Assembly (NCBI GenBank): GCA_963697085.1
Contig: CAVOMR010000003.1
Location: forward strand, 1,282,745 to 1,346,744
DNA from: Candidatus Dormiibacterota bacterium
Lineage (GTDB): Bacteria; Chloroflexota; Dormibacteria; Aeolococcales; Aeolococcaceae
Length of the DNA: 64,000 nucleotides
Direction of reading: 5' to 3'
A program made the position numbers and the translations under genes. Each line of letters opens with the position of its first letter. The first letter of the stretch is position 1. The notes below the pieces were generated by a model. That model was given only the letters and a program-made list of their open reading frames with translations, was not told where the DNA came from and did no database searches. Below are positions 29,301-52,688 of this stretch, piece after piece.

Positions 29301-29322
29301 CCGCCGCCCGCGGGCGATGCTG

Positions 29323-31730: not shown

Positions 31731-31834
31731 AACCGGACGCTACGCTTTTTCGGTTTCACGACGCGCACAACCCATGCGCACGCGTCGTGCTTCGCGATAT
31801 CGGCACAGCGTCCAAGGACATCGGAGGAATCACA

Positions 31835-33634: not shown

Positions 33635-33663
33635 GAACCTCCACTTCCCCCGGCCCGTTTATG

Positions 33664-33693
33664 GGGCGCCCGGCATCGTGCCGGGCGCCCTTT
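33664..33693 (+). terminator. Rho-independent terminator after the SBP gene
   Basis: Perfect 12-bp stem GGGCGCCCGGCA / TGCCGGGCGCCC with a 3-nt loop, followed by TTT. Confidence 0.65.
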
Positions 33694-33743
33694 CATATTC
33701 CCGGATCCGTTGCGGCGCGAGTGCCATGCAGAATACGCGCACC

Positions 33744-35351: not shown

Positions 35352-35355
35352 GTTC

Positions 35356-36585: not shown

Positions 36586-36589
36586 GAGG

Positions 36590-36621
36590 GGTGAAGGACC
36601 GCCGCCGGGCGGTCCTTCACC
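36590..36621. terminator. Bidirectional hairpin terminator between convergent genes
   Basis: Perfect 14-bp stem GGTGAAGGACCGCC / GGCGGTCCTTCACC with a 4-nt loop. Confidence 0.65.
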
Positions 36622-36682
36622 AGTCTCCGCTCTCGCACATGTCAGCCCACCGACGTCGGACATCAAGCGCAGACGCGTCGCC

Positions 36683-36883
36683 TCACGCCCTGGTCTGCTC
36701 CGGAAACTCCGGTACCTGTCCCGGAACGTTCGGGGTTGGGACCTGAGGTATCTCTCCCGGCGCCTCCAGCGGTGGCGTGTCCGCGGGGAAGTCTCCCGGA
36801 GCCGACGGCGGCTCGATCTGAGGGGTCTGCGGGGGATCGATCTGCGGTGTCTCCTGGGGCATCTCGCCTGCTGAAAGGCTCAT
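36683..36883 (-). CDS. Small acidic proline-rich protein (66 aa) with PQ-x-x-PP repeats
   Basis: The ATG overlaps the stop of the upstream gene (ATGA). Sequence MSLSAGEMPQETPQIDPPQTPQIEPPSAPGDFPADTPPLEAPGEIPQVPTPNVPGQVPEFPEQ. No family recognised. Confidence 0.4.
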   Translation of the reverse strand: MSLSAGEMPQETPQIDPPQTPQIEPPSAPGDFPADTPPLEAPGEIPQVPTPNVPGQVPEFPEQTRA

Positions 36884-37128
36884 CGCTTCGCGTGGCCACC
36901 GGCCATGAGCTGCCGCCAGCCTCGTACCTCGATCTCGACGCCGAAGCGGCGTGCCGCCGCCCGGATCTTCCTCCAGGCCCGGTCACGGTCGGCATCGCTC
37001 ACGCCTTCGACCTGATTGAAACGCGCGAGCGCATTGCGGACGTGGTCCGCATCGGTCAGCGGTTCCTTCCGCTGCTTCGTAAAGGCGAAGCTGCGGGCGT
37101 CGAGCTTGTTTCGTCCCCGAGTTTGCAT
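36880..37128 (-). CDS. Small conserved actinobacterial-type protein (DUF6582-like)
   Basis: FAFTKQRKEPLTDADHVRNALARFNQVEGVSDADRDRAWRKIRAAARRFGVEI. Confidence 0.6.
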   Translation of the reverse strand: MQTRGRNKLDARSFAFTKQRKEPLTDADHVRNALARFNQVEGVSDADRDRAWRKIRAAARRFGVEIEVRGWRQLMAGGHAKR

Positions 37129-37146
37129 GGCCGGTTCCTCGTTTCC

Positions 37147-37338
37147 TCAGCGGTTGTCCGCTTTGTCCTTCAGGGCGTCGGCGGCTCCCTTCACTTTGTC
37201 GGCGGCATCACCAAGCGCGTGCTCTGCGCCACCGACGGCGTGTTGCATCTTGCCTTCGGACTCGCGTTCCTTGTCGCCGGTGACCTTGCCCTGAACCTCT
37301 TTCGCCCTGCCGATGACCTGGTCCTGCTCTCCAGACAT
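37147..37338 (-). CDS. CsbD family stress-response protein
   Basis: MSGEQDQVIGRAKEVQGKVTGDKERESEGKMQHAVGGAEHALGDAADKVKGA. Confidence 0.8.
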   Translation of the reverse strand: MSGEQDQVIGRAKEVQGKVTGDKERESEGKMQHAVGGAEHALGDAADKVKGAADALKDKADNR

Positions 37339-37462
37339 GTCGCGTCCTCCGATGAGAGAGGGACCGATGTGGAGCCGGCAGCCTCTCGTGAATATGATAG
37401 TGACACTATCATGAAAGTACCAGGCTAGGATATGGGGTGTGGCCTCACCCGCCACCGCGTCC

Positions 37463-39838
37463 TCAGCTTTGTCGTGCGGTCTCGGGCTCCCGCACCGGGG
37501 CGTCTCGTGGCGTCCGGAACCGGGCCACCAGCTCGTCGGGCGCGATCGGCCGGCTGATCAGGTACCCCTGCAGCTCCGAGCAATGACGGCTCGAGAGGTA
37601 CTGGCGCTGCACCTCGGTCTCCACGCCCTCGGCCACGACCGTTAGACCAAGGCTCAGACCCATGGCGATCATGGCGTCGATGATCGGAGCGTCCTGCGAC
37701 GCGCTGACGATCGCGCGCGTGAAGGACAGATCGATCTTGAGTGTGTCCACCGGGAATCGCTCCAACCGGCTCAGCACGGAATAGCCGGTGCCGAAGTCAT
37801 CGATGGCGATGCGCACACCGAGGTCGCGGACCATCTGCAGCAGGGCGAGCGCCTCGCCCTGCTGCGGCACGGCAGCACTCTCGGTGATCTCGAGCTCGAG
37901 GAGGCGCGGATCCAGACCGGTGACGTTGAGCGCATCGATGACCCGCTCGAGCAGACGGCAGCTCACCAGGCTTCGACCCGAGACGTTGACCGCGACGGGC
38001 AGGGGGCCGGCGTCGGAGTTCGCCCATGACTGCGCCTGCCGGCACGCCGCTGTGAGCACCCAGGTGTCAAGGTCGTTGATCAGCCCGCTCTGCTCCGCGA
38101 TGGGTATGAACACGTCCGGTGCTACCGGGCCACGGGTGGGATGGTTCCAGCGCACCAACGCTTCGACACCCTTGAGGACATTGGTCTGCGCGTCGACCTT
38201 CGGCTGATACACGAGCATGAGCTCGCCGCGCGCCATCCCGGCGCGAAGGTCCTGCTCGAGCGTCATCCGCTCGAGAGCGTCGACGTACATCGTGCCGGTG
38301 AACACGGCATGACGGTCCTTGCCGTCGGCTTTGCCCACGTACAGCGCCACGTCTGCGTTCCGCACCACATCCGCCGCGACCTTCGCATCGATCGAGGTCG
38401 CGACACCGATGGTTGCGGTGATGCTCATCCGCCGCTTACCGATGGTGAACGGCGACTGCAGCGCAACGCGCAGCCGCTCCGCCGTCCGTGAGGCCTCGCA
38501 CGGGTCGGTGAGATCCTCCAGGAGGATCGCGAACTCGTCGCCGCCGAGCCGCGCCGCGGTGTCGCTCGGTCCGATGCCACTGGCAAGACGCTGGGACACC
38601 TTCACCAGAAGGTCGTCGCCGGTTGGGTGACCGAGGCTGTCGTTGACGGTCTTGAAGTTGTCGAGGTCGATCATCAGCACGGCGTAGCAGCCACCGCTGG
38701 ATTCCAGCCGCTGATGCGCATGCTGGAGCCTGTCGCGGAACAGCGAGCGATTTGGCAGGCCGGTGAGCTCATCGTGAAACGCCTGATGCTCGAGCTCATG
38801 CTGGAGGCGCGCGCGATCGGTGACATCGCTCGGGCAGATGATCATCGCAGGCTCGCCGTCGAAGATCATCTGCCGGGTGTCAATCTCGATGTCGAGAACG
38901 TCGCCGGCTTTCGTGCAGTGACGGATGTTCTCGAAGTGCGTCCGCCCGCTGCGGACTGCGAGCAGGTTGCCGACCAGTTGCTCGCGATCCTCCGGAGGGC
39001 GGATCTGCCCGAGATGGAGCGCGAGGAACTCGGCGCGCGTGTAGCCGTACATTGCTTCGGCCGCCCGGTTCACAGAGAGGAATTGCAGCTCGCCCGTCGG
39101 GTGTGCAGACGCCGGGAGCCTCGTGACCAGCATCGGTTGCGGGTTCTCGTCGAACAGTGAGCGGAACGTCTCCTCGCGGGTCGCAATGACACGCGCGTTG
39201 TCCGCGAGCCGGTGCGCGACCGTCTCTGCGGCGATGATCCTGTGGCGCCGGCGGCGCGCGAAGAGCGCGAACACGCAGATCAGCAGGCCGGCGGCGATCA
39301 CCAGGCCGACCGTCGCCACAAACGCGATGGTCACCCCGCCGGCGGCGCTCGCGGCCTCCGCGTTAGCCTCAGCCTTCAATGCGGCGTCCAGCGGCGCGAA
39401 CGTCGCCTCAACCAGGCTCACCGAGAGGTCGGCAGGCGTCTCCGTGCCCGCAATCCGCATCCCGTTCAGCTCACCTGAGACCGCTTCCTGATACGCATTG
39501 GTGAGTTGCGTGATGTGTGTCAGCACCGCACTGGATGCGTCCAGCGACTGGATGCCACGGAGCGCCTTCTGCGCCTCTGCCTGCAGCACCGTCCGCGTGG
39601 CCACGCTGTCGAGCACGCTCTCCTGCTCCACAGCGATATCGGTCCGCAGTCCGCTCATCGCCTGTGCCGCGGCCTGCTTCTGGTCAGACCAGACGTGCAG
39701 CGCGACGAAGGCGGCGAGGACGGCGCAGGTGAGGGCACCGTAGGCGACGAATCCAACCCAGACAGGCATATCCGCCGGACGCGAAGACCTTCCTGGCCGA
39801 GTGATTTTCACTGCTGCCTCGTATTTCGCCTGCAGCAA
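37463..39838 (-). CDS. Membrane sensor with PAS, GGDEF (diguanylate cyclase) and EAL (phosphodiesterase) domains
   Basis: RLGGDEFAILL (GGDEF) and GVEALVRWNHP...ELEITES...DDFGTGYS (EAL). N-terminal TM/periplasmic-type region. The start is uncertain: TTG at 39838 or ATG at 39769. Confidence 0.9.
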   Translation of the reverse strand: MLQAKYEAAVKITRPGRSSRPADMPVWVGFVAYGALTCAVLAAFVALHVWSDQKQAAAQAMSGLRTDIAVEQESVLDSVATRTVLQAEAQKALRGIQSLDASSAVLTHITQLTNAYQEAVSGELNGMRIAGTETPADLSVSLVEATFAPLDAALKAEANAEAASAAGGVTIAFVATVGLVIAAGLLICVFALFARRRRHRIIAAETVAHRLADNARVIATREETFRSLFDENPQPMLVTRLPASAHPTGELQFLSVNRAAEAMYGYTRAEFLALHLGQIRPPEDREQLVGNLLAVRSGRTHFENIRHCTKAGDVLDIEIDTRQMIFDGEPAMIICPSDVTDRARLQHELEHQAFHDELTGLPNRSLFRDRLQHAHQRLESSGGCYAVLMIDLDNFKTVNDSLGHPTGDDLLVKVSQRLASGIGPSDTAARLGGDEFAILLEDLTDPCEASRTAERLRVALQSPFTIGKRRMSITATIGVATSIDAKVAADVVRNADVALYVGKADGKDRHAVFTGTMYVDALERMTLEQDLRAGMARGELMLVYQPKVDAQTNVLKGVEALVRWNHPTRGPVAPDVFIPIAEQSGLINDLDTWVLTAACRQAQSWANSDAGPLPVAVNVSGRSLVSCRLLERVIDALNVTGLDPRLLELEITESAAVPQQGEALALLQMVRDLGVRIAIDDFGTGYSVLSRLERFPVDTLKIDLSFTRAIVSASQDAPIIDAMIAMGLSLGLTVVAEGVETEVQRQYLSSRHCSELQGYLISRPIAPDELVARFRTPRDAPVREPETARQS

Positions 39839-39934
39839 AGCATGGCTGCTCCCAGTCGCACGCTAGCGCGCGCGACCCGATCCGCACCACGGCATTGCAA
39901 AGTCCGCGCAAACCCGAGACAATCGCCGACTTGC

Positions 39935-39949
39935 ATTAGGTTGCCTAAT
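39935..39949. promoter_or_regulatory. AT-rich palindrome, candidate MarR operator
   Basis: ATTAGG-TTG-CCTAAT (6-bp inverted arms) about 17 bp upstream of the marR-type gene, followed by a related half site TAGCCTAA. It is conspicuous in otherwise GC-rich DNA. Confidence 0.45.
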
Positions 39950-39965
39950 TTGGTAGCCTAACGAT

Positions 39966-40403
39966 ATGACCGTCACAGCGAGTGAGATCGTCGAGGCGCT
40001 GGACTCGGACTTTCCCACCGCGATCACCCGGCTCTACCGGCGCCTGCGCGCCGAGCGACCTGGTGACCAGATCAGCGACTCGCAGCGGACGGTGCTGGCG
40101 CTCCTCGTGCGGGAAGGACCGCACACGCTGCGAGAGCTCAGCGACCACGAGCACGTCACGCCGCCGTCGATGAACCAGACGGTGAACTACCTCGCGAGCG
40201 CCGGTTACGTGGCGCGAACCGACGACCCTAAGGACGGCCGCAAGGTGATTCTCACGGCGACGGCGGAGGGCATCGCGCTCATCGCGGAGGCGCGCCAGCG
40301 GCGCCACATGTGGCTGAACGGGCAGCTCCAGCAGCTCTCGAACGACGAGCGCGCGGTGCTGTCCAAGGCGACGCACATCCTCAACAAGATCGCTGACTCG
40401 TGA
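39966..40403 (+). CDS. MarR family transcriptional regulator
   Basis: Winged-helix region SDSQRTVLALLVREGPHTLRELSDHEHVTPPSMNQTVNYLASAGYVARTDDPKDGRKV. Confidence 0.85.
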   Translation: MTVTASEIVEALDSDFPTAITRLYRRLRAERPGDQISDSQRTVLALLVREGPHTLRELSDHEHVTPPSMNQTVNYLASAGYVARTDDPKDGRKVILTATAEGIALIAEARQRRHMWLNGQLQQLSNDERAVLSKATHILNKIADS

Positions 40404-42100
40404 GCGCGCAGGCGACTCTCGAAAAGCCGGCGGTTGCGGGGATCTCGCCCCGCTACAAGTGGCTCGTGCTGTCCAACACCACGATCGGCGTGCTGCTGGC
40501 GACGATCAACTCGTCGATCATGCTCATCGCGATGCCCGACATCTTTCGCGGCATCAAGCTCAATCCGCTCGCGCCGGGGAACAGCTTCTACCTGCTCTGG
40601 ATGATCCTCGGCTATCTCATCGTGAGCAGCGTGCTCGTCGTGAGCCTCGGGCGGCTCGGCGACATGTTCGGTCGCGTGCGCATGTACAGCCTCGGGTTCG
40701 TCATCTACACATCGGCCTCATTCGTCCTAACTGTTGACCCGTTGACCGCGCAGTCCGGCGCCCTCTGGTTGATCATCGGCCGCCTCCTGCAGGGAGTCGG
40801 CGCGGCGTTCCTCGTCGCCAACTCCGCGGCGATCCTCACCGATGCGTTCCCCTCGAACCAGCGCGGTCTTGCGCTCGGGATCAACAGCATCGCAGCGATC
40901 AGCGGGCAGTTCATCGGCCTGATTCTCGGCGGCGTCCTCGGGTCGATCGACTGGCGCCTCGTGTTCCTCGTCTCAGTGCCGTTCGGTCTTTTCGGGACGA
41001 TCTGGTCGTACCGCAATCTCAAGGAGTTGGGCCAGCGTCACCGGGCGAAGGTTGACTGGAGGGGCAATGTCACCTTCGCGCTGGGGCTCGTGCTCGTGAT
41101 GATCGGCATCACGTACGGGATCGAGCCCGCGGACGGCAAGAGCATGGGCTGGACGAGCGCGCCGGTGATCGCGTTGCTCACCACCGGTGTGGCATCGCTC
41201 GTCGCGTTCGGCGTCATCGAATCCCGTGTCACGGAGCCGATGTTCCGGCTTGCGCTCTTCAGGATCAAGGCGTTCACGTTCGGCACGCTGGCGACGTTCC
41301 TATCTGCCATCGGGCGTGGGGGCCTGATGTTCATGCTGATCATCTGGTTGCAGGGGATCTGGCTGCCGCTGCACGGGTACAGCTTCGAACAGACACCGCT
41401 CTGGGCCGGCATCCTGATGCTGCCGCTGACCGCCGGCTTCCTGCTCGCCGGGCCGGTTTCAGGCTATCTGTCGGACAAGGTCGGCGCGCGATATCTCGCG
41501 ACCGGCGGGATGACCGGTGCGGCGTTCGGATTCCTGCTGCTTCTCTTCCTGCCGATCGACTTCGCGTACGTCGGTTTCGCTGCGATCCTCCTGTTTGTCG
41601 GGCTCTCGATGGGAGCGTTCTCCGCGCCGAACCGCGCCGCGATCATGAACAGCCTTCCAGCCCGGCATCGCGGCGCCGGGGGTGGCATGAACTCGACGTT
41701 TCAGACGTCGGCGCAGGTCCTCTCCATCGGCGTGTTCTTCACGCTGATGATCGTTGGACTGTCAGCGACTCTCCCGACGACGCTGACGCAAGGCCTGGTG
41801 GCGCACGGTGTTCCGCTGTCGGTCGCGACGCACGTCGGCAACCTGCCGCCGGTGTCAATCCTCTTCTCGGCCTTCCTTGGCTACAACCCGATCCAGACGC
41901 TGGTCGGTCCCACAGTGCTCTCGCATCTCTCCGCGGCGAATCGCGCGGCGCTGACCGGGCACTCGTTCTTCCCCAATCTCATCGCCGGCCCGTTCCATTC
42001 GGGCCTGGCCGCGGCGTTCATCTTCGCGGCCACGGTGTCGCTGATCGCGGCGGCAGCGTCCTGGTCGCGCGGCTCGCGGTACGTCAGCGTCGATCTCTAA
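40400..42100 (+). CDS. MFS efflux transporter, DHA2 (EmrB/QacA, 14-TM) type
   Basis: The GTG overlaps the marR stop (GTGA). Motif GRLGDMFGRVRMY and 566 aa of polytopic sequence. Confidence 0.85.
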   Translation: MSAQATLEKPAVAGISPRYKWLVLSNTTIGVLLATINSSIMLIAMPDIFRGIKLNPLAPGNSFYLLWMILGYLIVSSVLVVSLGRLGDMFGRVRMYSLGFVIYTSASFVLTVDPLTAQSGALWLIIGRLLQGVGAAFLVANSAAILTDAFPSNQRGLALGINSIAAISGQFIGLILGGVLGSIDWRLVFLVSVPFGLFGTIWSYRNLKELGQRHRAKVDWRGNVTFALGLVLVMIGITYGIEPADGKSMGWTSAPVIALLTTGVASLVAFGVIESRVTEPMFRLALFRIKAFTFGTLATFLSAIGRGGLMFMLIIWLQGIWLPLHGYSFEQTPLWAGILMLPLTAGFLLAGPVSGYLSDKVGARYLATGGMTGAAFGFLLLLFLPIDFAYVGFAAILLFVGLSMGAFSAPNRAAIMNSLPARHRGAGGGMNSTFQTSAQVLSIGVFFTLMIVGLSATLPTTLTQGLVAHGVPLSVATHVGNLPPVSILFSAFLGYNPIQTLVGPTVLSHLSAANRAALTGHSFFPNLIAGPFHSGLAAAFIFAATVSLIAAAASWSRGSRYVSVDL

Positions 42101-42127
42101 CATCACGGGCATGGAGTCGGTGCGGCG

Positions 42128-43006
42128 GTGAGCACACCGCAGACCGGGATCTTCGCGCTCGGAACGGCGTCGCACACCTACCTTGAATTCGACCTGGTCC
42201 CCGGAGCGGACGGCCAGGACCTTGTCGCGAAGGTCGCGTCGCTGCGCGAGCCGCGCACCACGGTGGGCGGCGTGAACCTGGTCGTCGGATTCCGGCCGGA
42301 GCTGTGGCGAAGGTACGCGCCGGAGGCCGCACCCCTCGGCGTCACGGGGTTCGACAGCGACATCGTCGGGGTCGACGGGTTCCTGATGCCGGCCACGCAA
42401 CACGACGTGGTGGTCTGGGTATCGGGGATCGCGTACGACGTCGTCTTCGGGGTCGCGAAAGCGGTCATCGGTGCGCTCGACACCGTGGCGACCGTTGCAG
42501 ACGAGACGGTGAGCTGGCCCTACGAACGCGATCGCGACCTGACCGGGTTCATCGACGGCACCGAGAACCCCGATCTCATCGATGCGCCAGGCGTTGCGTT
42601 GATCGCCGACGACCAGCCGGGCGCAGGTGGCACCGTGCTGCTGCTGCAGAAGTGGCCGCACGATCGCCGAGCCTGGGAGTCGCTTCCGGTCGAGCAGCAG
42701 GAGCAGATCATGGGGCGCAGAAAGCTCGACGGCGTCGAGCTCGAGAACAAGTCGGTCCATTCGCACGTCGGCAGTACGGACCAGGACCGCTTCGGCAAGG
42801 TGTTCCGGCGCAACATGCCGTACGGGAGCGTCACCGACCACGGCACGATGTTCGTCGGCTTCAGCGCTGACCAGCAACGGCTCACCGCGATGCTGGAGAG
42901 CATGGCCGGTCTCCACGACGGCGTTCGCGATGCCCTGACGGCCTACACGCGACCGCTCACCGGCGCGTACTACGTCGTTCCATCATCGGTGAGCCTGCGC
43001 GGGTAG
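42128..43006 (+). CDS. Dyp-type (dye-decolorizing) peroxidase
   Basis: GFIDGTENP (GxxDG motif), RRNMPYG, and a ferredoxin-like duplicated fold length of about 290 aa. Confidence 0.85.
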
Positions 43007-43698
43007 GCCTGGTACTCGAGGGGATCCACGGCGCCGGCTTCCTGGAAGCCCTTGAGGCGCAGCAGGCAGGAGTCACACGCGCCGCAGGGACGACCTTCGT
43101 TGTCCGGGTCGTAGCAGCTGCTCGTGAGGCCGAAGTCGACGCCGAGCGCCAGGCCCTTGCGGATGATGTCGGCCTTGGTCATCGCGATGAGCGGCGTGTG
43201 GATCGTGAGGCGCCAGGTGCCTTCGACAGCAACCTTCACGGCCAGGTTCGCCATCCGCTCGAACGCCTCGATGTACTCGGGGCGGCAGTCCGGATACCCG
43301 CTGTAGTCGAGCGCGTTGACGCCGATGAAGATGTCCTGCGCACCGAGCACCTCCGCCCACGCGAGTGCGAAGGACAGGAAGATCGTGTTGCGTGCGGGGA
43401 CATATGTGATGGGTATCCCCGCGTTCATGGTGTCGAGCGCTCGGTGCTTCGGCACTTCGATGTCGCTGGTCAGCGCTGACCCGCCGAACACGCGCAGGTC
43501 GATCGTCGCGACGACGTGCTCACTGGCATCGAGGGCGGCCGCGACTCGCCGCGCGGCCTCGAGCTCGTACGCGTGCCGCTGCCCGTACTGAAAGCTCAGT
43601 GCGCGCGTGTCGAAGCCGTCGGCTTTCGCGACGGCGAGCACGGTGCTCGAATCGAGACCACCGCTGAGGAGTACGACAGCACGCGGGTTCGGTGGCAC
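42970..43698 (-). CDS. queC: 7-cyano-7-deazaguanine synthase QueC
   Basis: PP-loop [11 protein letters not shown] and Zn-binding Cys cluster SCYDP...[10 protein letters not shown]. The GTG at 43698 is chosen. The longer ORF N-terminus is Arg-rich and non-homologous. Confidence 0.85.
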
Positions 43699-44091
43699 GA
43701 CACAGCAAATGCTGGCAGATCGATGCCGATGTGCTGCGGTCGCGATTCCCAGTGAGTCCACAGCGCGATCCGAGAGTTCCCGGAGCCGCGATCGCCATCG
43801 TCGACGTTGTCGAAACCAAAGCTCATCGGAGACATGACATGACGACGGCAACCATCTTCTTCAACCTCGCGCTCGGCGCCGGGACATCGGGCCTGGTCGG
43901 AACAGCAATGGCCCTCGTTCCCAATATCGACCAACTCCGCGTCGCCGGTCGAACGCGAACTGTGCATCACGTCCATCGCCCGCAGGGACATCTTGGGGCT
44001 GACCTGCAACCCGGCGGGTAGGCCGCCGAGTGGCGCCCGCCGGGACACGAAGCGATACTAGAGAGCAGGACGCACACGGAGGTGAGTACCT

Positions 44092-44523
44092 GTGAGCAAG
44101 ACATTCGTTGCCGAGAAGACCGTCTCGATCGACGCTCCCCCTGAGGTCGTCTGGCAGGCGCTGACTGACCCCGACAAGGTCAGGGAATACTTGCACGGCA
44201 CCACGCTCGCGACCGACTGGGAGGTCGGCAGCCCGATCACATGGAGTGGCGAGTGGAAAGGCACGCCGTACCAGGACAAGGGAGTCGTCCTCGCCTTCGA
44301 GCCGACGACGTTGCTGAGCACAACGTATTGGAGCTCAATGAGCGGGAAAGAGGACAAGCCCGAGAACTATTACACCGTGACGTACACCCTCCAAGACGAC
44401 GACGGGACCACGAATCTCACGTTGCAGCAGGACGGCAACGAGAGCCAGGAAGCCGCAGACCAGATGGCTGAGAACAACTGGGGCCCTGTGCTCGAGAGTC
44501 TCAAGGCAGTCGCCGAGCGGTAG
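44092..44523 (+). CDS. SRPBCC / AHSA1-like (START-fold) protein
   Basis: VSIDAPPEVVWQALTDPDKVREYL... GTG start after GGAGG. Confidence 0.8.
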   Translation: MSKTFVAEKTVSIDAPPEVVWQALTDPDKVREYLHGTTLATDWEVGSPITWSGEWKGTPYQDKGVVLAFEPTTLLSTTYWSSMSGKEDKPENYYTVTYTLQDDDGTTNLTLQQDGNESQEAADQMAENNWGPVLESLKAVAER

Positions 44524-44524
44524 C

Positions 44525-45448
44525 GTGAGCGACGGGTCGCTGCCGCCGGCCATCTCGCTCGCCGACCTCCCGATCCCTCGCAACGCGGGTGCGGAGACGA
44601 TCGCCGCCCCTTCCGAGCGCGGACCGGGCCACTGGGTCGGAGCACCGAGCGCCCTGGTGCGCGACGGCGTTCATTACATCGCGTATCGAACCCGGCGGCC
44701 CGTCGACGATGGGCGCGGCGGCGACGTGATCGTTGCGCAAGTTGCGACTGACGGCGTTGGGATCGTCGAGCTCTGCCGCATCGACAAGCGATCCATGGAT
44801 GCCGAGTCCCTCGAACGGCCGGCACTCGTGGTGGATTCCAGTGGACGTTGGCGTCTCTACCTGAGTTGTGCCACGACTGGAACACGACACTGGCGCGTCG
44901 AAGTCCTGGATGCCGCATCGCCCGACGGCTTCGTGAGCACCGGGCGTCGCGTCGTGATGGCCGGTGACGCGCGCATGGCGATGAAGGATCCCGTCATCAG
45001 GTGCGACGGCCGCGGATGGCGAGCGTGGATCTGCTGCCACCCGCTCGATGATCCGGACGCCACCGACCGCATGTGGACGGAATACGCAACCAGCGACGAC
45101 GGCATCGACTGGACCCGGCACGGCCCGGCCCTGAAGCCGGCTCCGGGGCGGTGGGATCAGCGAGGCACGAGGGTGACGTCAATCATCGAACGAGGCAACA
45201 CGGTCGTGGCCTTCTACGACGGCCGGGCGGATGCCGCCGAGAACTGGGAGGAGCGTACCGGCGTCGCGGCCGGGCAAGCCGGGCACCTCGAGATCGTCGG
45301 CGATGCGCCGGTAGCGCAGGCGGTGGGCCCGTACCCCGCGCTTCGCTATGCCACCGTCGTCGAAGGTGGCGATCGCATTGCGGTGTATTACGAGGTCGGA
45401 TGCGAAGACGGCAGCCACGAGCTTCGACGGGAGTGGCTCGGAGCGTGA
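44525..45448 (+). CDS. Hypothetical protein, possibly a beta-propeller glycoside-hydrolase-like fold
   Basis: 307-aa ORF with good codon bias. Repeated W/Y-x-hydrophobic strand patterns. The family is not recognised with confidence. Confidence 0.45.
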   Translation: MSDGSLPPAISLADLPIPRNAGAETIAAPSERGPGHWVGAPSALVRDGVHYIAYRTRRPVDDGRGGDVIVAQVATDGVGIVELCRIDKRSMDAESLERPALVVDSSGRWRLYLSCATTGTRHWRVEVLDAASPDGFVSTGRRVVMAGDARMAMKDPVIRCDGRGWRAWICCHPLDDPDATDRMWTEYATSDDGIDWTRHGPALKPAPGRWDQRGTRVTSIIERGNTVVAFYDGRADAAENWEERTGVAAGQAGHLEIVGDAPVAQAVGPYPALRYATVVEGGDRIAVYYEVGCEDGSHELRREWLGA

Positions 45449-45499
45449 GCGACAACGAGTCGCTGTTCGCCGGTTGGCCGGAAGGTCACTATTGGGCGC

Positions 45500-46228
45500 A
45501 TGCCGTCCGTGAACAACCTCGAGCATGCCCGCTACGCACGCATGCGCTGGAACGCGCCGCTCTCCGAGGAGCATGCGAGTTTGCTGCTACGCCGCCTCGA
45601 CATCCGGCAGGGGGCGTCGCTGCTCGACCTCGGCTGCGGGTGGGGTGAGCTATTGCTGCGCGCGATCGACAGTGCCGGGGTCACGACCGGGACCGGCGTC
45701 GACAATGACCCGGAGGCCATTGCGCGAGCCCGATCTCTCGCTGCCGAACGCGGCCTTGACCGGCGTGCGACGTTCGTCGCCGGTCCGGCCGCCGAATGGC
45801 AGCAACCGGCCGATCGAGTCATCTGCGTCGGTGCTGCGCACGCCTTCGGGGGCGCCGAAGCGGCGTTGGCGGCCCTCGGCGGATTTGTGAATCCCAGTGG
45901 TCGAGTGCTGTTCGGCGACGGATGCTGGGAGCGGCCGCCGACTGAGGATGCCGCTCGGATGTTCGGCGAGTCCGTCCGAACACTGGGCGACCTGGTCGGC
46001 GATGCGCAGCGGGCAGGCTGGCGCATCCTGCACCTCAGCGTCGCCGATCAGCGCGAGTGGGACGACTTCGAGTCGACCTACCGCGCTGGACGTCAGGAGT
46101 GGTTGCTGGCCAATCCCGAAGACGAGCGAGCGGCCTCGGTGCGTGACGAACTGGACGTGCAGCTCCATCAGTACATCGGCACCTATCGCGGCGTGCTCGG
46201 CTTCTGCTATCTCGTGCTCGGCCGATAG
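45500..46228 (+). CDS. Class I SAM-dependent methyltransferase
   Basis: Motif I SLLDLGCGWGELLL and an acidic loop TGVDNDPEA. Confidence 0.75.
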   Translation: MPSVNNLEHARYARMRWNAPLSEEHASLLLRRLDIRQGASLLDLGCGWGELLLRAIDSAGVTTGTGVDNDPEAIARARSLAAERGLDRRATFVAGPAAEWQQPADRVICVGAAHAFGGAEAALAALGGFVNPSGRVLFGDGCWERPPTEDAARMFGESVRTLGDLVGDAQRAGWRILHLSVADQREWDDFESTYRAGRQEWLLANPEDERAASVRDELDVQLHQYIGTYRGVLGFCYLVLGR

Positions 46229-46271
46229 CGGATCCGACAGCACGACCACCTGACCCACTCCCGGACAAAGA

Positions 46272-46302
46272 GGGCCGCCTCCAAACGACTCAGAGGCGGC
46301 CC
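46272..46302. terminator. Bidirectional hairpin terminator between the methyltransferase gene and nrdJ
   Basis: 10-bp stem GGGCCGCCTC / GAGGCGGCCC with an 11-nt loop. Confidence 0.55.
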
Positions 46303-46330: not shown

Positions 46331-49217
46331 TCAGCTGCAGCCGCTCGTCGCTCCGCAGTTGTGGCACTTGTAGCAGGCGCCGTTGCGCACCATGAGGCTG
46401 CCGCAGTCACTGCAGGTTGGCGCGTCCTCCTGGTTGATGAATGCGCCCGCGCTGAGAGTCGATATCGGGGTGACGGCCTTGCGCACTGCTGCAGCAGGCG
46501 TCGCGACCGCGGCCGTTGACTCCACCGACGCGGTGTCGACACCGAAGTCGGCGAGGTCTGTCGCCTCGGGGGTTACGCTGCCATCGGGCTCGCGCCGGAT
46601 AATGCCGAGGCGATCCCGCTCCTCCTGCGGCAGGAAACGCGATGCCAGCCAGCGGAAGATGTAGTCCATCACCGACTTGGCAATCGGGATCTCGGGGTTG
46701 CGCGTGAAACCCTGCGGATCGAAGCGCGTGTGGGAGAACTTGTCGACGAGCGCCGGCAGCGGCACGCCGTACTGCAGCGCGAGTGAGACGGCGGTCGCGA
46801 ACGAGTCCATGAGCCCGCTGACCGTCGAGCCTTCCTTGGCCATCCGGAGGAAGATCTCGCCGGGTGTGCCGTCGTCGTAGAGGCCGACGGTGATGTAGCC
46901 CTCGTGTCCGCCGACCTCGAACTTGTGCGTCAGCGCCGTGCGCTCGACGGGAAGGCGCTTGCGCAGCGGGCGCTCCACCACTTGCGTACGGTGACCGGTG
47001 GTCTTGTCGATGCTGGTCGCGAGCGGCTGGCTGCGCTTGCTGCCGTCGCGGTAGATCGCGACCGCCTTGAGCCCGAGCTTCCAACCGTCCGTGTAGGCGC
47101 GCTCGATGTCCTCGACGGTCGCCTCGTTGGGCATGTTCACCGTCTTGGAGATTGCGCCGCTGATGAACGGCTGCACCGCCGCCATCATCCGGAGGTGTCC
47201 CTGCCACGTGATCGAGCGCTTGCCGTTCTGCGGTGTGAACGCGCAGTCGAAGACCGCGACGTCCTCCTCGCGCAGCGTCGGCGCACCCTCGATGGTGTCG
47301 TTGCTGTCGATGAACGCGATGATGTCGGCGATCGCGGTCTCGCCATACCCGAGCCGGCGGAGTGCCGCGGGGACGGTGCCGTTGACCATCTTCAGCATCC
47401 CGCCGCCGACGAGCTTCTTGTACTTGACGAGCGCGATGTCCGGCTCGACACCCGTGGTGTCGCAGTCGAGCATGAAGCTGATCGTCCCGGTCGGCGCGAG
47501 CACCGTCGCCTGTGAGTTGCGATATCCGTGGCGGGCACCGAGCTCGTGCGCCTCATCCCATGCGTGCCGCGCGGCACCGATGAGATCGGCCTCGATGTTG
47601 TCGGTCGGGATGTTGTACGCGGCCTCGCGATGCTTGCCGACAACTCGGAGCATCGGCTGGCGGTTGACCGCGTAGCCGTTGAACGCGCCGACCTCGCGCG
47701 CGATGCGCGCCGACTGCGCGTAGGCCTCGCCGGTGAGGATCGAGGTCAGGCAGGCTGCGAGGTCGCGGCCCTGGGGGGAGTCGTAGGGAACGCCGCGCGC
47801 CATGAGGAGCGCGCCGAGGTTCGCGTAGCCGAGTCCGAGAGGACGGAAGTCCTCGCTGTTCTTCGCGATCTTCTCGGTCGGGTACGACGCGTTGCTGACC
47901 AGGATCTCCTGCGCGGTGATCGTGATGTGAATCGCGTGCTTGTACAACTCGATGTCGATCGAGCCGTCGTCGTTCAGGAATCGCGTGAGGTTCAGTGACG
48001 CGAGGTTGCAGCTGGTGTCGTCGAGGAACATGTACTCGCTGCAGGGGTTGCTCGCGTTGATGCGACCCGTCGCCGCGGACGTGTGCCAGTCGTTGATGGT
48101 CGTGTCGTACTGCATGCCCGGGTCGCCGCACTGCCACGCGGACTCCGCGATGAGCTTCATGAGCGAGCGGGCCTTGACGGTCTTGAGGATGCGGTTCGAA
48201 GTCCGTCACCGCGCGCAGGTGCCAGTCACGGTCGTCCTGGACGGCGCGCATGAACTCGTCCGTCACGCGGACGGAGTTGTTGCTGTTCTGGAAGAAGACC
48301 GACGCGTACGCCTCACCGGTGAAGGAGCTGTCGTAGCCGCCCTCGATGAGCGTCCACGCCTTGCGCTCCTCGCTCACCTTGCAGGTGATGAAGTCCTCGA
48401 CGTCCGGGTGGTCGACGTTGAGGATGACCATCTTCGCGGCGCGGCGCGTGGTGCCACCGCTCTTGATGACACCCGCGAACGCGTCGAACCCCTTCATGAA
48501 GGAGACGGGTCCGCTCGCGGTGCCGCCGCCGGCCAGCGACTCGGTCGCGGAGCGGATCGGCGAGAGGTTGGTCCCGGTGCCGCTCCCGTACTTGAAGAGC
48601 ATACCCTCGGTCTTCGCGAGCGTGAGGATCGACTCCATGGTGTCCTCGACGCTGTTGATGAAGCACGCGGAGATTTGAGGCTTGCTCGTGACGACGCCGA
48701 GGTTGAACCACACCGGGCTGTTGAAGCTCATCTTCTGATGCAGCAACAGGTGGGTGAGCTCGTCCTGGAACGCCTGGGCGTCGGTCTCCGTCGCAAAGTA
48801 GCCTCCCTCTCGGCCCCACTTTGCGATGGTGTCGGCGACGCGCGAGATCATCTGCTTGACGCTGTTCTCGCGACCCGGAGTGCCGAGCTTCCCGCGGAAG
48901 TACTTGCTCACCACGACGTTTGTGGCCATCTGTGACCAGAACGTCGGGATCTCGCAGTCCTTCTGCTCGAAGACCGTCTCGCCCTTCTCGTTGCCGATGG
49001 CAGCGGTGCGCTGCTCCCACGTCACCTCGTCGAAGGGATGCACGCCTTCGCGGGTGAACCTGCGCTCGACCTGGATGCCACCGCTCTCGATCTCCACCTT
49101 GGTGCTCACGCGGGCGTGTTCCGACCCACTTCGGCGAGGTGCTCTCCGGCCGGTGGGCGGCTCCATCGAGATGTGGTGAGCGTCGTCAGGCGGGAGTTTG
49201 GAGGCGGAGCGATCCAC
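46331..49217 (-). pseudogene. nrdJ: Adenosylcobalamin-dependent (class II) ribonucleotide reductase NrdJ, frame broken by one extra base at about 48193-48203
   Basis: The N-terminal ORF reads ...WSQMATNVVVSKYFRG...SACFINSV...RDWHLRAVTD and then junk. The other frame continues NRILKTVKARSLMKLIAESAWQCGDPGMQYDTTINDWHT...NPCSEY... to the C-terminal Zn ribbon CSDCGSLMVRNGACYKCHNCG. The junction lies at GACTTCGAACC on the coding strand. Confidence 0.85.
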
Positions 49218-49320: not shown

Positions 49321-51510
49321 TCAATGATCCCACATGTTGGGCCCCAGCCGGTCGGGAGCCCCCATATCTTGCGAGTCAGTGGTCCGGGAGTCAAGGGGGT
49401 TTTGCACCTCTGTTGCACCGGTGAGGATGTCCCGGTGGAGGATCGGAACCTCGATCCGCATCGTGACGCGGCGATCCCCCGCGATCAGCAGGAACTCGCC
49501 CCGAGACGCGGTTTCGAGGAAGCCGCGCTGGGCCTCCGTCAGCCCGAACGCCTGCTCCATCCGGGCCGTTTCCGCGGCTCGATGCCCGCCCAGGAGGACC
49601 ACCGCGCAGTTCGTCGCGATCACGCTGCCCTCGTCGCTGCTGAGGAGGTCCTGCGCGTTCTGCGTGGCCACGACGAGCGACGCGCTGTACTTGCGGCAGC
49701 GTCGCGCCAGCTGCACCAGGAGCTCTCGCAGCGGACGGTGCGCGCAGAGCGCGCCGACCTCGTCGAACACGATGTGCCGGCGGCGTTGATCCCTGCGGAC
49801 CAGCTCCCACAACCAGCGGGCGACGATGAGCGTCGCCGCGGCGACGTGCTCCGGTGGCATGTCTCTGAGCGAGATCGCGCAGACGCCCGAGTCCACGGCG
49901 AGTGATGTGGGGCGGTTGAACAAGGCGCCGAGCCCGCCGGTGCAGAAGCGGCGCACGACGGTCGCGACCGGGCGTGCTTCCTCGTCGAGCGTTGGAAGGC
50001 AATCCTCGAGCAGCGGGATGCGATGTTCGCCATGCGCACGTTGGACAGCGTCGCGCGCCGCGACATCGACGACGGCACGCTCGACATCGCCGAGACGGTC
50101 GCCGCAGAGCACGGTCACGAGGCCCACGACCGCGGCGATCGTCTCCTCGGCATCGTCGTCAACACCTTCGAAGACGTTGACCGCCGCGTCGGTTCCAGGC
50201 GCCAGCTCGAGATACCGCCCGCCAAGCGCCTTCACCACGGCGCGATATTCACCCTCGGGATCGATGATCACCGAGTTCACGCCGGCGACGGCCGCCTCGA
50301 GCACGAGCGTGCCGATCGCAAAGCTCTTGCCGTGCCCCGACGCCGCGAACACCGCGATGTTCGGATTCGGGTGGCGGTCGGTGTCGAACGGCGCGACGGA
50401 GACCGGCAACCCGGAGCGGATCGCGGCGCCGAGACGGTAACCGCGATGGTCCGAGCACCCGGCCTCGATCCACGGAATGCACGTCGCGGCAGCGGCGGAG
50501 TCGACCAGCTTGCCGTCATGGAGGGCGTCGAAGCAGAGCAGCTGCGTGCTCATGAAGGCCTCCATGTGGCGGAAGTGCGTGATCTCCGCAGCTGTGAGCG
50601 CCGAGGCGAAGGCGAGTCGCAGCGCATCGCTCTGCAGGTCGAGGTCCTCCTGCGAGGAGCCGTGCGCGGTGGCGATCACCGAGAGATGCAGCGGACGACC
50701 CAGGTTGCGCGCGAGGCGGTCGCGCAAGGCCGTTGCGGAGTCGAGCCCGATATCGACGTGGACGTCGGCGAGCGCGCCGCGTTCGTATTCGAGCATCCGG
50801 TGCGCGGAGAAATCGCGCAGCCGCCGGTTCAGCCGGCCGAGCGCTTCCCCGAGTGGCGCAGGCGCCAGATGGATGGCGATATCGCAGTCGGCCCTGACGC
50901 TGAAGAGAGGCGCCAGCCATCCCGGGCCGACGGCGTGCCCCGGCAGGCGTCGCACGGCGAAGCCACGATGGGGCCGGCCGCCAACGTCCACCTGCCGCGC
51001 CTGCTCACGCCACCACACGCCGTCGTTTTCGTCATGATCGTCCGCAACAGCCTCGAGCAGGGCCATGTCCTCGAGCCGGGTGGCGCCGACGCCGAGCGCC
51101 CGGAGACGGTCCAGCGCGTGTGCGCAGGCGGCATCGAGCGCCGCGAGGGTTCGGCCGCAGAGCGCGACGTAGACCTGACGTGTGTAGCGACGGTCAGCCC
51201 ATATCTCGTCTTTCCAGTGCTGTTGCATCGCGTGGTCGAGCTCTTCATGTTGCGGCGGGAACGGGCCCGCGGGTGGGATCTGGAGGCGGCGGACGCGAAC
51301 CACGAGCTGCATCGGGCTCTCCAGCGTGTGGCAGAGCCGCGCGAATGCGGCGGCAGCGGCTGACTGGCGCGCCGGGTCGAGGGCGGTGATGTCGAGCTCA
51401 CTGGTCGCGAGCACGGCAGAGAACTGGCCCCGATGCTCGCATCGGTTGCCACGGACGACAACTGGAGCCGGTGCGGGGTTCTCCCAGGCGAGCGGCTTCA
51501 GCCGTGCCAT
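49321..51510 (-). CDS. VirB4/TraE/PrgJ-family type IV secretion-like ATPase (orphan)
   Basis: 729 aa. The N-terminal domain pattern FSAVLATSELDITALDPARQSAAAAAFARLCHTLESPMQLVVRV is typical of Gram-positive VirB4 homologues. Walker A FAASGHGKSF, Walker B HIVFDEVGAL, and RKYSASLVVATQNAQDLL...RGEFLLIAG. The start overlaps the upstream gene by 13 nt. Confidence 0.7.
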   Translation of the reverse strand: MARLKPLAWENPAPAPVVVRGNRCEHRGQFSAVLATSELDITALDPARQSAAAAAFARLCHTLESPMQLVVRVRRLQIPPAGPFPPQHEELDHAMQQHWKDEIWADRRYTRQVYVALCGRTLAALDAACAHALDRLRALGVGATRLEDMALLEAVADDHDENDGVWWREQARQVDVGGRPHRGFAVRRLPGHAVGPGWLAPLFSVRADCDIAIHLAPAPLGEALGRLNRRLRDFSAHRMLEYERGALADVHVDIGLDSATALRDRLARNLGRPLHLSVIATAHGSSQEDLDLQSDALRLAFASALTAAEITHFRHMEAFMSTQLLCFDALHDGKLVDSAAAATCIPWIEAGCSDHRGYRLGAAIRSGLPVSVAPFDTDRHPNPNIAVFAASGHGKSFAIGTLVLEAAVAGVNSVIIDPEGEYRAVVKALGGRYLELAPGTDAAVNVFEGVDDDAEETIAAVVGLVTVLCGDRLGDVERAVVDVAARDAVQRAHGEHRIPLLEDCLPTLDEEARPVATVVRRFCTGGLGALFNRPTSLAVDSGVCAISLRDMPPEHVAAATLIVARWLWELVRRDQRRRHIVFDEVGALCAHRPLRELLVQLARRCRKYSASLVVATQNAQDLLSSDEGSVIATNCAVVLLGGHRAAETARMEQAFGLTEAQRGFLETASRGEFLLIAGDRRVTMRIEVPILHRDILTGATEVQNPLDSRTTDSQDMGAPDRLGPNMWDH

Positions 51511-52688
51511 GCGACCGGCAGCTCACCGCCAATCCGTCGAGCGAGACGGCGAAGCGCCATCGCGGCGGGTCCGGAGTCGTCGAGCGCGACGAGGCGGTGC
51601 GCGTTCTCCGCCGTGACCACGGAGTTGTCGTCGGGGATGTCGCCGATCAGCTGACCACCGAGGTCGGCCATGGGTTCGGAGAGATCGGTGCCGGGACGCG
51701 AGCGATTGACGATGTAGCGCAGTTGATGACGCAGACCCAGTCGCCGCAACGCCTCGGTGCTGCGGTACGCGTCCTGGACGCCGCCCGCGGTCGGCACCAC
51801 GACGACGAAGACGTCATCGCACGCGCCGAGCGCCGCGATGTTCAGCGGCGACAGCTCCGGGGAGATGTCGACAACCACGAGGTCGAACGCGTCCATGTCG
51901 AGCTCGCGCAACACCTCCCTGAGGAGCGCAGGCGTCACCGGCCACTCCGGGTTGACCGGGCGCTGGGGGCCGAGCAGCACGCGTGTGCCGGATGCATGCG
52001 TGATCATGAAGTCGACGACGCTGCGGTCCTCAGGCGGCGCCAGCGCGAAGTCCAGCAGCGTCTTCTCGGGCGCGCCGAGACGGATGCCGACCGTGGGACT
52101 GCGCAGGTCGAGGTCGATGAGCGCAACCTTCAGCGCGGGGCGGTCGTCGCTGCTGCTGGCTGCAAGCAGGCATGCAAGCTCAGTCGCGAGGGTGCTGCGC
52201 CCCGTCCCGCCGCGCAGTGAGAAGAAGGTGACCCGTCGCGGCCCATCGCGGCGGTCCGGGTGCGCAAGGATCACCGGGGAGGTGGGGGCTCGCGGTGGCG
52301 GCGTCTGCCGAGCGCCGAAGAGCTCGATGATCGGAGCCTGCACCGGCTCGTCTGCGGGGGACGGCTGCGTCGGGTTGGGCGGAGACGGCGTGTCGGAAGT
52401 TGCGAGGTTGCAGCGCAAGGACCCGTGCCGCGCTCGAACCGAATACAGGCCCGCGAACACCGCCCAGTCCAGCGCGGGTCGCCCTGCGACGCTGATCCAC
52501 CCAAGTGCGGCGGCGATCGCGCCGACGACAACGGCCATCGGATCCGCGATCGCCGGAGAGAGCGGCGAACGGAGCAGCGCGTATGCGGCGAGCGCCCCGA
52601 CCATGACCACCACGAGCTGGCCGGCTCCGAGACCGAACGCGATCTGGTCGGGCCGGTCGAAGCCGTCGGCGAACTCGATCTGATCCAT
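51498..52688 (-). CDS. Fusion protein: PrgI/VirB3-like two-TM module + Pro-rich linker + ParA/MinD/CpaE-like P-loop domain
   Basis: ATG at 52688 after GGAG. The N-terminus MDQIEFADGFDRPDQIAFGLGAGQLVVVMVGALAAYALL...VVGAIAAALGWISVAGRPALDW resembles PrgI-family proteins. The linker is TSDTPSPPNPTQPSPADEP. The C-terminal region RVTFFSLRGGTGRSTLATELACLLA...LIDLDL...DLVVVD is ParA/MinD-like. The rest of the 938-aa ORF is antisense to the aldehyde dehydrogenase and is rejected. Confidence 0.65.
   Translation of the reverse strand: MDQIEFADGFDRPDQIAFGLGAGQLVVVMVGALAAYALLRSPLSPAIADPMAVVVGAIAAALGWISVAGRPALDWAVFAGLYSVRARHGSLRCNLATSDTPSPPNPTQPSPADEPVQAPIIELFGARQTPPPRAPTSPVILAHPDRRDGPRRVTFFSLRGGTGRSTLATELACLLAASSSDDRPALKVALIDLDLRSPTVGIRLGAPEKTLLDFALAPPEDRSVVDFMITHASGTRVLLGPQRPVNPEWPVTPALLREVLRELDMDAFDLVVVDISPELSPLNIAALGACDDVFVVVVPTAGGVQDAYRSTEALRRLGLRHQLRYIVNRSRPGTDLSEPMADLGGQLIGDIPDDNSVVTAENAHRLVALDDSGPAAMALRRLARRIGGELPVAWHG

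Follow-up and report, generated by a model that had tools for sequence, protein, structure and literature searches.

The stretch of DNA analyzed here, a 64,000-nucleotide (64-kb) window of contig CAVOMR010000003.1 from a Candidatus Dormiibacterota bacterium, carries on its minus strand two overlapping genes, called gene A and gene B below, among housekeeping genes that include nrdJ and an aldehyde dehydrogenase. The first-pass annotation of this DNA had described the pair as a VirB3(PrgI)-like gene followed by a gene for a VirB4-like ATPase. Its placement of the two genes and of their 13-nucleotide (nt) overlap was confirmed, and profile matches to both proteins upheld the PrgI-then-VirB4 order. 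Look-ups of the exact gene A and gene B protein sequences gave no record. Genes of the window were called with a codon-bias gene caller, which gave 59 genes, and the features of the pair are collected in Table 1. The TGA stop of gene A, at 51500-51498, falls within the opening codons of gene B (ATG at 51510-51508), an overlap that suggests translational coupling of the two genes, and a GGAG lies approximately 10 nt 5' of the gene A start. The window has a G+C content of approximately 67%, and that of the 49- to 53-kb region is 0.69 to 0.70, the same as its flanks, with no compositional break at the pair. A scan of 48.9 to 53 kb for sigma-70 promoters and terminators gave nothing exceeding chance, and no tRNA or integrase gene was seen adjoining the pair.

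Table 1. Features of genes A and B and of the neighboring control element, in window coordinates
Feature	Position	Strand	Description or basis
Gene A	51498..52688	minus	396 amino acids (aa); PrgI/VirB3-like membrane anchor fused to MinD/ParA-type domain
Gene A residues 1-90, PrgI-family hairpin	52419..52688	minus	Helices: two transmembrane, one amphipathic; FADGFD motif conserved
Gene A residues 91-148, proline-rich linker	52245..52418	minus	Variable length; short conserved IIELF motif
Gene A residues 149-396, MinD/ParA-type (SIMIBI) nucleoside triphosphatase (NTPase) domain	51498..52244	minus	Pfam, PDB profiles, Foldseek
Gene A variant Walker A RGGTGRS, residues 159-165	52194..52214	minus	Alignment of 37 homologues
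A-B overlap, 13 nt	51498..51510	minus	Gene A stop to gene B start, read from the sequence
Gene B	49321..51510	minus	729 aa; two-domain VirB4-class ATPase (N-terminal domain; P-loop domain at the C terminus)
Gene B Walker A GHGKS, residues 392-396	50323..50337	minus	Homologue alignment
Gene B Walker B FDEVG, residues 582-586	49753..49767	minus	Invariant alignment columns
nrdJ promoter/operator-like element	49329..49394	minus	Within the 3' end of gene B, which is unconserved; TTGAC and two CAAnATnTGGG boxes 32 bp apart

The two proteins of the pair

The gene B protein exceeded the cut-offs of three Pfam models (AAA_10, P-loop_TraG, and DUF87). Among curated families, it was best matched by the NCBIfam VirB4-like conjugal transfer ATPase of the CD1110 family (3.8e-48), with residues 170-685 aligning to positions 200-735 of the 752-position model. 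By sequence, the nearest solved structures in the PDB were the C-terminal domain of a Thermoanaerobacter VirB4 (4AG5, 7e-22) and the TrwK/VirB4 protein of R388 (5e-11). An AlphaFold2 model built with 30 homologues had a predicted local distance difference test (pLDDT) score of 80 and a predicted template-modeling (pTM) score of 0.78 and, in Foldseek, matched the full-length TrwK/VirB4 protein of the R388 cryo-electron microscopy structure with a template-modeling (TM) score of 0.71 over approximately 760 columns. HerA, DndH, and TrwB superposed on the ATPase core alone, with TM scores of 0.31 to 0.40 (0.31 to 0.37 for HerA), and FtsK_SpoIIIE scored 13.1 bits, under its Pfam cut-off. HerA/FtsK as the best-fitting family, the assignment against which the first-pass annotation had set its VirB4 reading of the 729-aa protein, was ruled out (TM score of 0.71 to TrwK/VirB4 versus 0.36 to HerA).

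The catalytic motifs of gene B were then examined across 30 homologues that were 56 to 91% identical to it. Walker A residues G392, G394, K395, and S396 were invariant and H393 was nearly so, and C-terminal of Walker B, RRCRK (603-607) and Q617-N618 were also invariant. Residues 700-729, with a pLDDT below 50, form an unconserved, disordered tail. These results demonstrate that gene B encodes a VirB4-class ATPase that is full length and has its catalytic motifs intact.

The earlier label of gene A as VirB3(PrgI)-like held for approximately the first 90 of its 396 residues, and the larger remaining part is a MinD/ParA-type domain at whose fusion to the anchor the first-pass annotation had only hinted. 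In the N-terminal part, AlphaFold2 placed helices at residues 22-39 and 45-64, both hydrophobic, and at 72-88. Profile comparison with hhalign between this N terminus and the PrgI proteins encoded upstream of paralogous VirB4 genes gave a probability of 97.6% (E value of 3.6e-12). The Pfam PrgI model matched 14 of the 15 small proteins encoded directly 5' of those paralogous genes, one of them above the cut-off, and the database record of one gene A homologue, P0192, already carries a match to this model (PF12666). The hairpin is followed by a linker that is poorly conserved except for L123 and F124, that has a pLDDT below 50 (residues 87-151), and that is disordered and from 55 to 110 residues long among gene A relatives.

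Residues 153-366 of gene A exceeded the Pfam cut-offs for ParA, AAA_31, and CbiA, and NCBIfam matches of the domain were to MinD (1e-14), BcsQ, the KGGVGR-variant AAA family (2e-10), and CpaE_hom_Actino/Ssd (3.9e-10). Profile matches in the PDB were to MinD, FlhG, FleN, and Soj, and Foldseek likewise returned FleN, FlhG, and MinD for the gene A model, which is of low confidence and serves only to support the sequence-based MinD assignment. Gene A did not fall within TadZ/CpaE, since it scored 39.4 versus 154 bits for TIGR03815 and its N terminus is a PrgI hairpin and not receiver-like; nor were Tad genes found in the window. Across 37 homologues, R159, G160, G161, T162, G163, S165, and T166 of the variant Walker A were invariant and R164 was present in at least 90%; D192 and D194 of the switch region and D274 of Walker B were also invariant. 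Both lysines of the KGGxGK[ST] consensus are therefore replaced by arginine in the gene A proteins of the window's clade. Two deeper orthologues, at loci L087 and L091, carry GGGTGKT and NGGTGKT, respectively. Because these two keep GKT, the Lys-to-Arg change in the P-loop is, on this alignment, a derived trait of the window's clade, and the signature lysine is missing from all of these proteins.

Inheritance of the pair and related modules in Dormibacterota

For gene A, 344 homologues were found at an E value of no more than 0.001, and among the 120 listed, identity was 64 to 100% over at least 98% of the query; for gene B, 193 were found at an E value of no more than 1e-5, with 55 to 91% identity among the 120 listed. 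The named sources were nearly all Candidatus Dormibacterota/Dormibacteria, the few other labels of metagenome-assembled genomes (MAGs) being judged unreliable, and many homologues lie on contigs of 0.2 to 3.6 Mb. Their NCBI and JGI labels are generic ("VirB4 family," "DUF87," "MinD-like ATPase," and "P-loop NTPase").

Seven orthologous loci were compared to the window (L001, L002, L003, L004, L087, L089, and L091). The full orthologous pair was present in six of them, five from Dormibacterota assemblies, on contigs of as much as 3.6 Mb, with nrdJ downstream in five of the six. Every neighborhood consists of housekeeping genes. In L001 (a contig of 3.57 Mb), L002, L003, and L089, the order is a divergent aldehyde dehydrogenase gene, gene A, gene B, and nrdJ, so the housekeeping neighbors first noted in the window recur, and these four loci also share the window's α/β-hydrolase, OtsA, and holin-X-like neighbors. 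L004 begins at gene B and runs on into nrdJ. In L087, at 45% identity, genes A and B and nrdJ are kept and the upstream genes differ, and in L091, at 39% identity, the fused gene A and gene B are present without nrdJ. The 13-nt overlap also occurs in the called genes of L001, L002, and L089, and that of L091 is 11 nt; genes A and B were adjacent throughout, with overlaps of 11 to 13 nt. Since L087 and L091 keep the pair despite changed flanks, the conserved unit is the A-B pair, and linkage to nrdJ is confined to the subclade at 44% identity or above.

Compared to L089, the closest orthologue, the ratio of nonsynonymous to synonymous substitution rates (dN/dS) was 0.147 over the whole of gene A and 0.089 over its MinD-like domain, and for gene B it was 0.122; both genes are under purifying selection. 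Among 72,556 plasmids, gene A had no match, no match covered 80% or more of gene B, and the best match to gene B had 29% identity and began only at approximately residue 142-194. No VirB6-like channel, type IV coupling protein (T4CP), relaxase, wall hydrolase, or integrase gene was found within 10 kb on either side of the pair in six orthologous loci. The first-pass annotation had allowed that such pairs might always sit inside complete conjugative elements, and the conserved chromosomal synteny of the orthologous pairs contradicts this. Taken together, these results show that the pair is chromosomal and does not reside on a mobile element, and they indicate that it is vertically inherited and characteristic of Candidatus Dormibacterota.

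Gene B also has more distant relatives in these bacteria. A search of 1.8 billion representative proteins with gene B returned 261 proteins at E values below 1e-30, among them a graded, full-length series of approximately 700 aa running from 57% to approximately 30% identity, past which ordinary VirB4 proteins of other lengths align only from approximately residue 170. All four organism-named members of the 700-aa series are from Dormibacteria, and the nearest source-named outgroup consists of Actinomycetota VirB4 proteins, one of which is labeled as CD1110 family. When a distant subgroup, approximately 31% identical to gene B, was searched for in species-representative genomes, 80 loci were found, most labeled Dormibacterota or soil "Chloroflexi" MAGs, which we took to be Dormibacterota, and a few bearing odd labels. 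This second module (L005-L084, L088, and L090) consists of genes for a small PrgI protein, a VirB4, and a conserved 197-aa protein, followed by housekeeping genes; the 197-aa partner is present in 78 loci and has no Pfam match. The upstream side of the module is variable and at times holds an integrase gene or an element like the actinomycete integrative and conjugative elements (AICEs). In L006, an AICE-like element at 4428-8869 abuts the PrgI-VirB4 genes and encodes SSB, a 437-aa FtsK/SpoIIIE-type protein, a 326-aa protein, and a tyrosine integrase, and L013 and L014 likewise have integrase genes adjoining the module, whose upstream side appears to be an integration hot spot. In L088 and in L090, which has a lower G+C content, the module continues with genes for Dtd, a 79- to 80-aa protein, and a TrbL/VirB6-like protein, for which TrbL_4 was above its cut-off in L088 and the TrbL match was weak in L090. 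In L088, CHAP and SLT genes are additionally found 6 kb upstream. Housekeeping genes are interspersed among all of these.

A third family, typified by P0267 (L085 and L086; Dormibacteria, 2.47-Mb contig), has a gene for a 727-aa VirB4-like protein immediately after Flp/DUF4244-like, TadE-like, PKD, and CpaB/RcpC genes (L085, 7041-12184). No TadA, TadB, or TadC gene was called within 10 kb on either side of this VirB4 gene, and in this family the Tad ATPase may have given way to a VirB4-type motor. Fusions also occur in the paralogous family, one joining PrgI to VirB4 (P0462, 808 aa) and others joining VirB4 to an α-galactosidase (Melibiase) domain (P0430, P0443, P0444, P0458, P0461, and P0505, approximately 1274 to 1288 aa). 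By eye, some PrgI proteins of the second module appear to bear a short MinD-like remnant, which hints that the PrgI-MinD fusion is old.

Flanking genes and the rest of the window

The promoter/operator-like element listed in Table 1 spans approximately the last 70 nt of gene B, so that the end of the gene B coding sequence and the regulatory DNA of nrdJ overlap. Its two CAAnATnTGGG boxes are the sole exact matches to this motif in the 64 kb. The boxed element is aligned and conserved in L002, L003, L004, and L087, where it is followed 3' by a conserved leader, a AGAGGAAA ribosome-binding site, and the GTG start of nrdJ; the window sequence joins this alignment only at GGATCAT, which lies downstream of the boxes, and the window boxes were read directly from its sequence. 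The element looks like an nrdJ promoter with tandem boxes that we take to be of the NrdR type and would belong to nrdJ and not to the pair. With nrdJ having its own control region, any functional inference from its adjacency to genes A and B is weakened. An Rfam scan found tRNA-Gln alone and no riboswitch near nrdJ.

In the window, nrdJ itself (46331-49217, minus strand; a B12-dependent ribonucleotide reductase) is read in two frames with a junction at approximately 48196-48200. Compared to the L001 orthologue, which is intact, the window gene has 1 nt inserted at the split, and tblastn placed residues 1-339 and residues 340-956 in different frames. Since nrdJ, OtsA, and QueC are likewise in pieces in the L089 assembly, that of the closest relative, the split more probably reflects an error of long-read assembly than a pseudogene. 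The VWA-type partner of a MoxR-like AAA ATPase (window 18953-21113) is 576 aa long with an odd C-terminal tail, its L003 orthologue has 673 aa, and a 430-nt gap separates it from the next gene; this may be another assembly frameshift.

The first-pass annotation had reported no other type IV secretion system (T4SS) gene in the 64 kb, and this was well supported. A hidden Markov model (HMM) scan of the window in six frames found no second VirB4-, PrgI-, or MinD-fusion-like open reading frame. With the TrbL-like, 79-aa, 197-aa, SLT, CpaB, PKD, and TadE-like proteins as phmmer queries, the only window match was the CHAP gene. This gene, at 27708-28844, lies approximately 20.5 kb from the pair (about 21 kb in the earlier description), encodes a coiled-coil N terminus, and looks like a housekeeping gene. 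For 20 less obvious window proteins, among them every polytopic membrane protein, Pfam searches returned only housekeeping families or nothing, the families including CHAP, LemA, MoxR-like AAA, Redoxin, DsbD_TM, MFS, ABC_tran, RecJ, holin-X, and DUF1905. The other genes were judged by eye from their translations and include TreS/Pep2/GlgE, aconitase, CobB, L25, MscS, GGDEF-EAL, Dyp, QueC, tryptophanase, and GDH. No relaxase, T4CP, or integrase was found among the window's proteins by this combination of Pfam scans of 20 and inspection of the rest, which falls short of an exhaustive profile search.

Two further arrangements were observed. A GlgE-pathway α-glucan cluster, recognized by eye, lies at 2-5458 on the minus strand (a GlgB fragment, maltokinase Pep2, TreS, and GlgE). 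In L003 (15170-22082), nrdJ is followed by one gene and then by His_Phos, MscS, L25, and B12-binding genes whose window counterparts are at 23.8 to 27.2 kb; in the window, approximately 19 kb of extra genes (approximately 27200-46300; CHAP, ABC transporter, GGDEF-EAL, MFS, Dyp, QueC, and others) separate these from nrdJ, an arrangement that L089 partly shares.

Proposed role and its alternatives

We propose, with a probability of roughly 0.6, that the pair is a domesticated, nonconjugative chromosomal motor module, a descendant of a monoderm-type (FATA-like) T4SS, in which the membrane anchor carries a MinD/TadZ-like regulatory or positioning domain. It would be nonconjugative because neither a relaxase nor a coupling protein accompanies it. 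The hairpin of gene A would dock the VirB4 oligomer on the cytoplasmic membrane with the C terminus of the anchor in the cytoplasm, since TrwM/VirB3 contacts the N-terminal domain of TrwK/VirB4 in the R388 structure (8RTB) and natural VirB3-VirB4 fusions exist. Each anchor would tether one MinD-like domain beside the motor, and this domain could act as a nucleotide-dependent switch that governs the site or timing of motor assembly or the choice of what the motor recruits. Comparable positioning roles are played by TadZ/CpaE for the Tad pilus ATPase, by FlhG for flagella, and by VirC1 for the Agrobacterium T4SS. With both Walker A lysines replaced by arginine, the domain of the window's clade probably binds nucleotide and hydrolyzes it poorly or not at all, or else serves as a pure scaffold. 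The module most likely energizes a housekeeping envelope process, such as the translocation of protein or DNA or the handling of membrane proteins, pilin-like ones among them, and channel and wall-hydrolase parts from other loci, for example the TrbL-like channel of the second module, may join it. The occurrence of some other VirB4 families near TrbL/VirB6-like, CHAP, SLT, or Tad-like genes makes partners encoded elsewhere plausible.

Several observations weigh against this proposal. Gene B fell under the curated NCBIfam cut-off of every VirB4 equivalog model (CD1110, 164 versus 325 bits; TIGR00929, 73.8 versus 643; TraC-F, 103.7 versus 567), scores that place it, as judged by these models, in a divergent VirB4 subfamily. 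The PrgI match of gene A (residues 12-77, 1.4e-4) is below the Pfam cut-off (PF12666, 22.8 versus 27 bits), and the gene A model is of low confidence (pLDDT of 57). The Lys-to-Arg Walker A could mean that the MinD-like domain is catalytically dead, and a regulatory or positioning role for this domain is suggested by analogy. A linked VirB6-like channel, hydrolase partner, or substrate gene was found in none of the seven loci, and the other VirB4 modules are tied to the window pair at the level of the phylum.

The main rival is a self-sufficient two-protein machine, for example for membrane protein extraction or insertion or for membrane remodeling, and we consider it unlikely, though worth keeping in view. 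Such a machine would fit the finding that the pair is the sole unit conserved in the deep orthologues, the flanks differing among the window, L087, and L091, and it would fit the lack of any cis T4SS partner in seven loci and the fused MinD domain, which is unique to this module. However, a TrbL/VirB6-like gene does stand at the paralogous locus in related genomes, and a VirB4 that works without a VirB6-type partner is not known to us, a point that a recent review supports (PMC12857230). The first-pass annotation had left the choice between a minimal machine and a remnant; given its purifying selection and its occurrence across the phylum, the pair is not an inert remnant, and, as regards a minimal machine, the plausibility of partners elsewhere must be counted.

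A role in the cell cycle or in DNA handling (segregation, division-site selection, or DNA uptake), linked to nrdJ, is improbable. The position of nrdJ immediately after gene B in each of the six orthologous loci at 44% identity or above would agree with it, as would the NCBIfam families that the gene A domain matches best (MinD, Ssd, and CpaE) and the place of VirB4 within the FtsK-HerA superfamily. Yet nrdJ has its own promoter/operator-like element and 5' leader and is absent from L091, synteny is high over approximately eight neighboring genes, which makes adjacency weak evidence, and the fold of gene B is that of full-length VirB4 and not of FtsK or HerA.

Two other explanations are very unlikely. 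That the pair is a functionless fragment of a decayed integrative and conjugative element (ICE), with only virB3 and virB4 left, could account for two T4SS-type genes with no partner within 64 kb and would echo the integrases and AICE-like element directly upstream of the paralogous genes in L006, L013, and L014, but it is countered by the matching overlap and conserved chromosomal synteny of orthologues from 39% to 91% identity, by dN/dS values of 0.12 to 0.15 with all ATPase motifs invariant, and by a G+C content equal to that of the flanks with no adjacent tRNA or integrase; it was accordingly rejected. An anti-phage or conflict system in which a HerA/VirB4-like ATPase works with a P-loop partner of variant type has about as little to recommend it, since the weak PADLOC matches of gene B (mad8, 1e-17; HerA, 4e-7) and of gene A (PDC-M28B, 1.4e-8) and the KGGVGR-variant AAA match of gene A at 2e-10 span only generic P-loop cores, no nuclease, Sir2, or protease effector domain is present, and both vertical inheritance in fixed synteny, unlike that of a defense island, and full-length likeness to VirB4 speak otherwise. 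Nor was a patchy, island-like distribution seen. A defense or phage origin was rejected, PADLOC and PHROGs having given generic P-loop matches only.

Compared to known systems, the pair, taken as a domesticated motor module, resembles PrgI-PrgJ of the monoderm mating-pair formation (MPF) class FATA (pCF10, CD1110 family, and T4SSs of actinobacterial plasmids) in its PrgI-then-VirB4 order and its PrgI hairpin. It differs from MPF-FATA systems in being chromosomal and vertically inherited, in lacking a VirB6/PrgH protein, T4CP, relaxase, and hydrolase in cis, and in the fusion of PrgI to a MinD-type domain. A cluster on an Embleya plasmid (L093), by comparison, holds genes for TrbL_4-like, PrgI, VirB4-like, T4CP, relaxase-like, and NlpC/P60 proteins. 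Its 349-aa PrgI protein (7278-8327) was considered as a precedent for the fusion and was rejected, as it is not MinD-like. By eye, the C-terminal extension of that protein resembles the start of the VirB4 N-terminal domain, and this plasmid may have a split VirB4 whose N-terminal portion has been joined to PrgI.

In having a MinD/ParA fold associated with a secretion or pilus ATPase, the pair is like TadZ/CpaE, FlhG/FleN, and VirC1. Those are separate soluble proteins, whereas the gene A domain is tethered to a VirB3-like anchor and has the Walker A RGGTGRS; in contrast to gene A, TadZ has a receiver-like N-terminal domain and MinD a C-terminal amphipathic helix. The Walker A of TadZ is also atypical. 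VirB3-VirB4 fusions, found on plasmids of Campylobacter and others and in P0462, place the C terminus of the VirB3 hairpin in the cytoplasm beside VirB4, the topology that gene A requires, although gene A joins VirB3 to a different NTPase and leaves VirB4 separate, if probably coupled to it in translation. The archaeal Ced system (CedA, CedA1, CedA2, and CedB) is similar in being a nonconjugative system of few components, with a VirB4/HerA-like ATPase and small membrane proteins, but it includes the polytopic, VirB6-like CedA, has no MinD domain, and bears no meaningful sequence relationship to the pair (NCBIfam matches were very weak, at 1.2e-4 for CedD and 0.33 for CedB).

As a precedent, Patescibacteria, described as sister to Chloroflexota and Dormibacterota, have a phylum-wide, chromosomal, relaxase-free T4SS with a monoderm-type VirB4 and PrgI/VirB3 (PMC12102498; PMC12857230). 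Their loci, unlike those described here, add TrsD, VirB6, VirB8, and VirB2-like pilins near virB4 (PMC12102498; PMC12857230), and the paper describing them reports no MinD fusion. The sole link to our pair found in the literature is the mention of Dormibacterota as a sister lineage in a Patescibacteria T4SS paper; no paper was found on a Dormibacterota VirB4 or on a PrgI-MinD fusion, and the first-pass annotation, which knew of no described system of this composition, agrees with our own literature search. All of the component folds are known, and what is new is the fusion architecture, its phylum-wide chromosomal inheritance, and the paralogous families.

A wider reading, which we offer tentatively and with more doubt than conviction, is that Dormibacterota possess a chromosomal, domesticated, T4SS-derived apparatus in several paralogous families (the MinD-fused module, the PrgI-VirB4-197-aa module, and the VirB4 joined to Tad-pilin-like genes) that serves housekeeping envelope, pilus, or DNA/protein transfer functions with no relation to conjugation, that the pair is a new class of VirB4 motor with its own MinD/TadZ-like assembly switch, and that this apparatus could share ancestry with the essential Patescibacteria T4SS. 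VirB4 is the signature ATPase of conjugation and of T4SSs and is usually read as a marker of mobile elements; here it and its VirB3 partner behave like a core chromosomal pair of a whole uncultured soil phylum. Together with the paralogous families and the Patescibacteria T4SS, the pair suggests that some deep monoderm lineages have repurposed T4SS motors, and it cautions against equating VirB4 genes with conjugative elements in such genomes. Gene A provides a natural construct for learning how VirB3 couples regulators to VirB4, and the pair offers a concrete target for metatranscriptomic and heterologous work on the cell biology of Dormibacterota.

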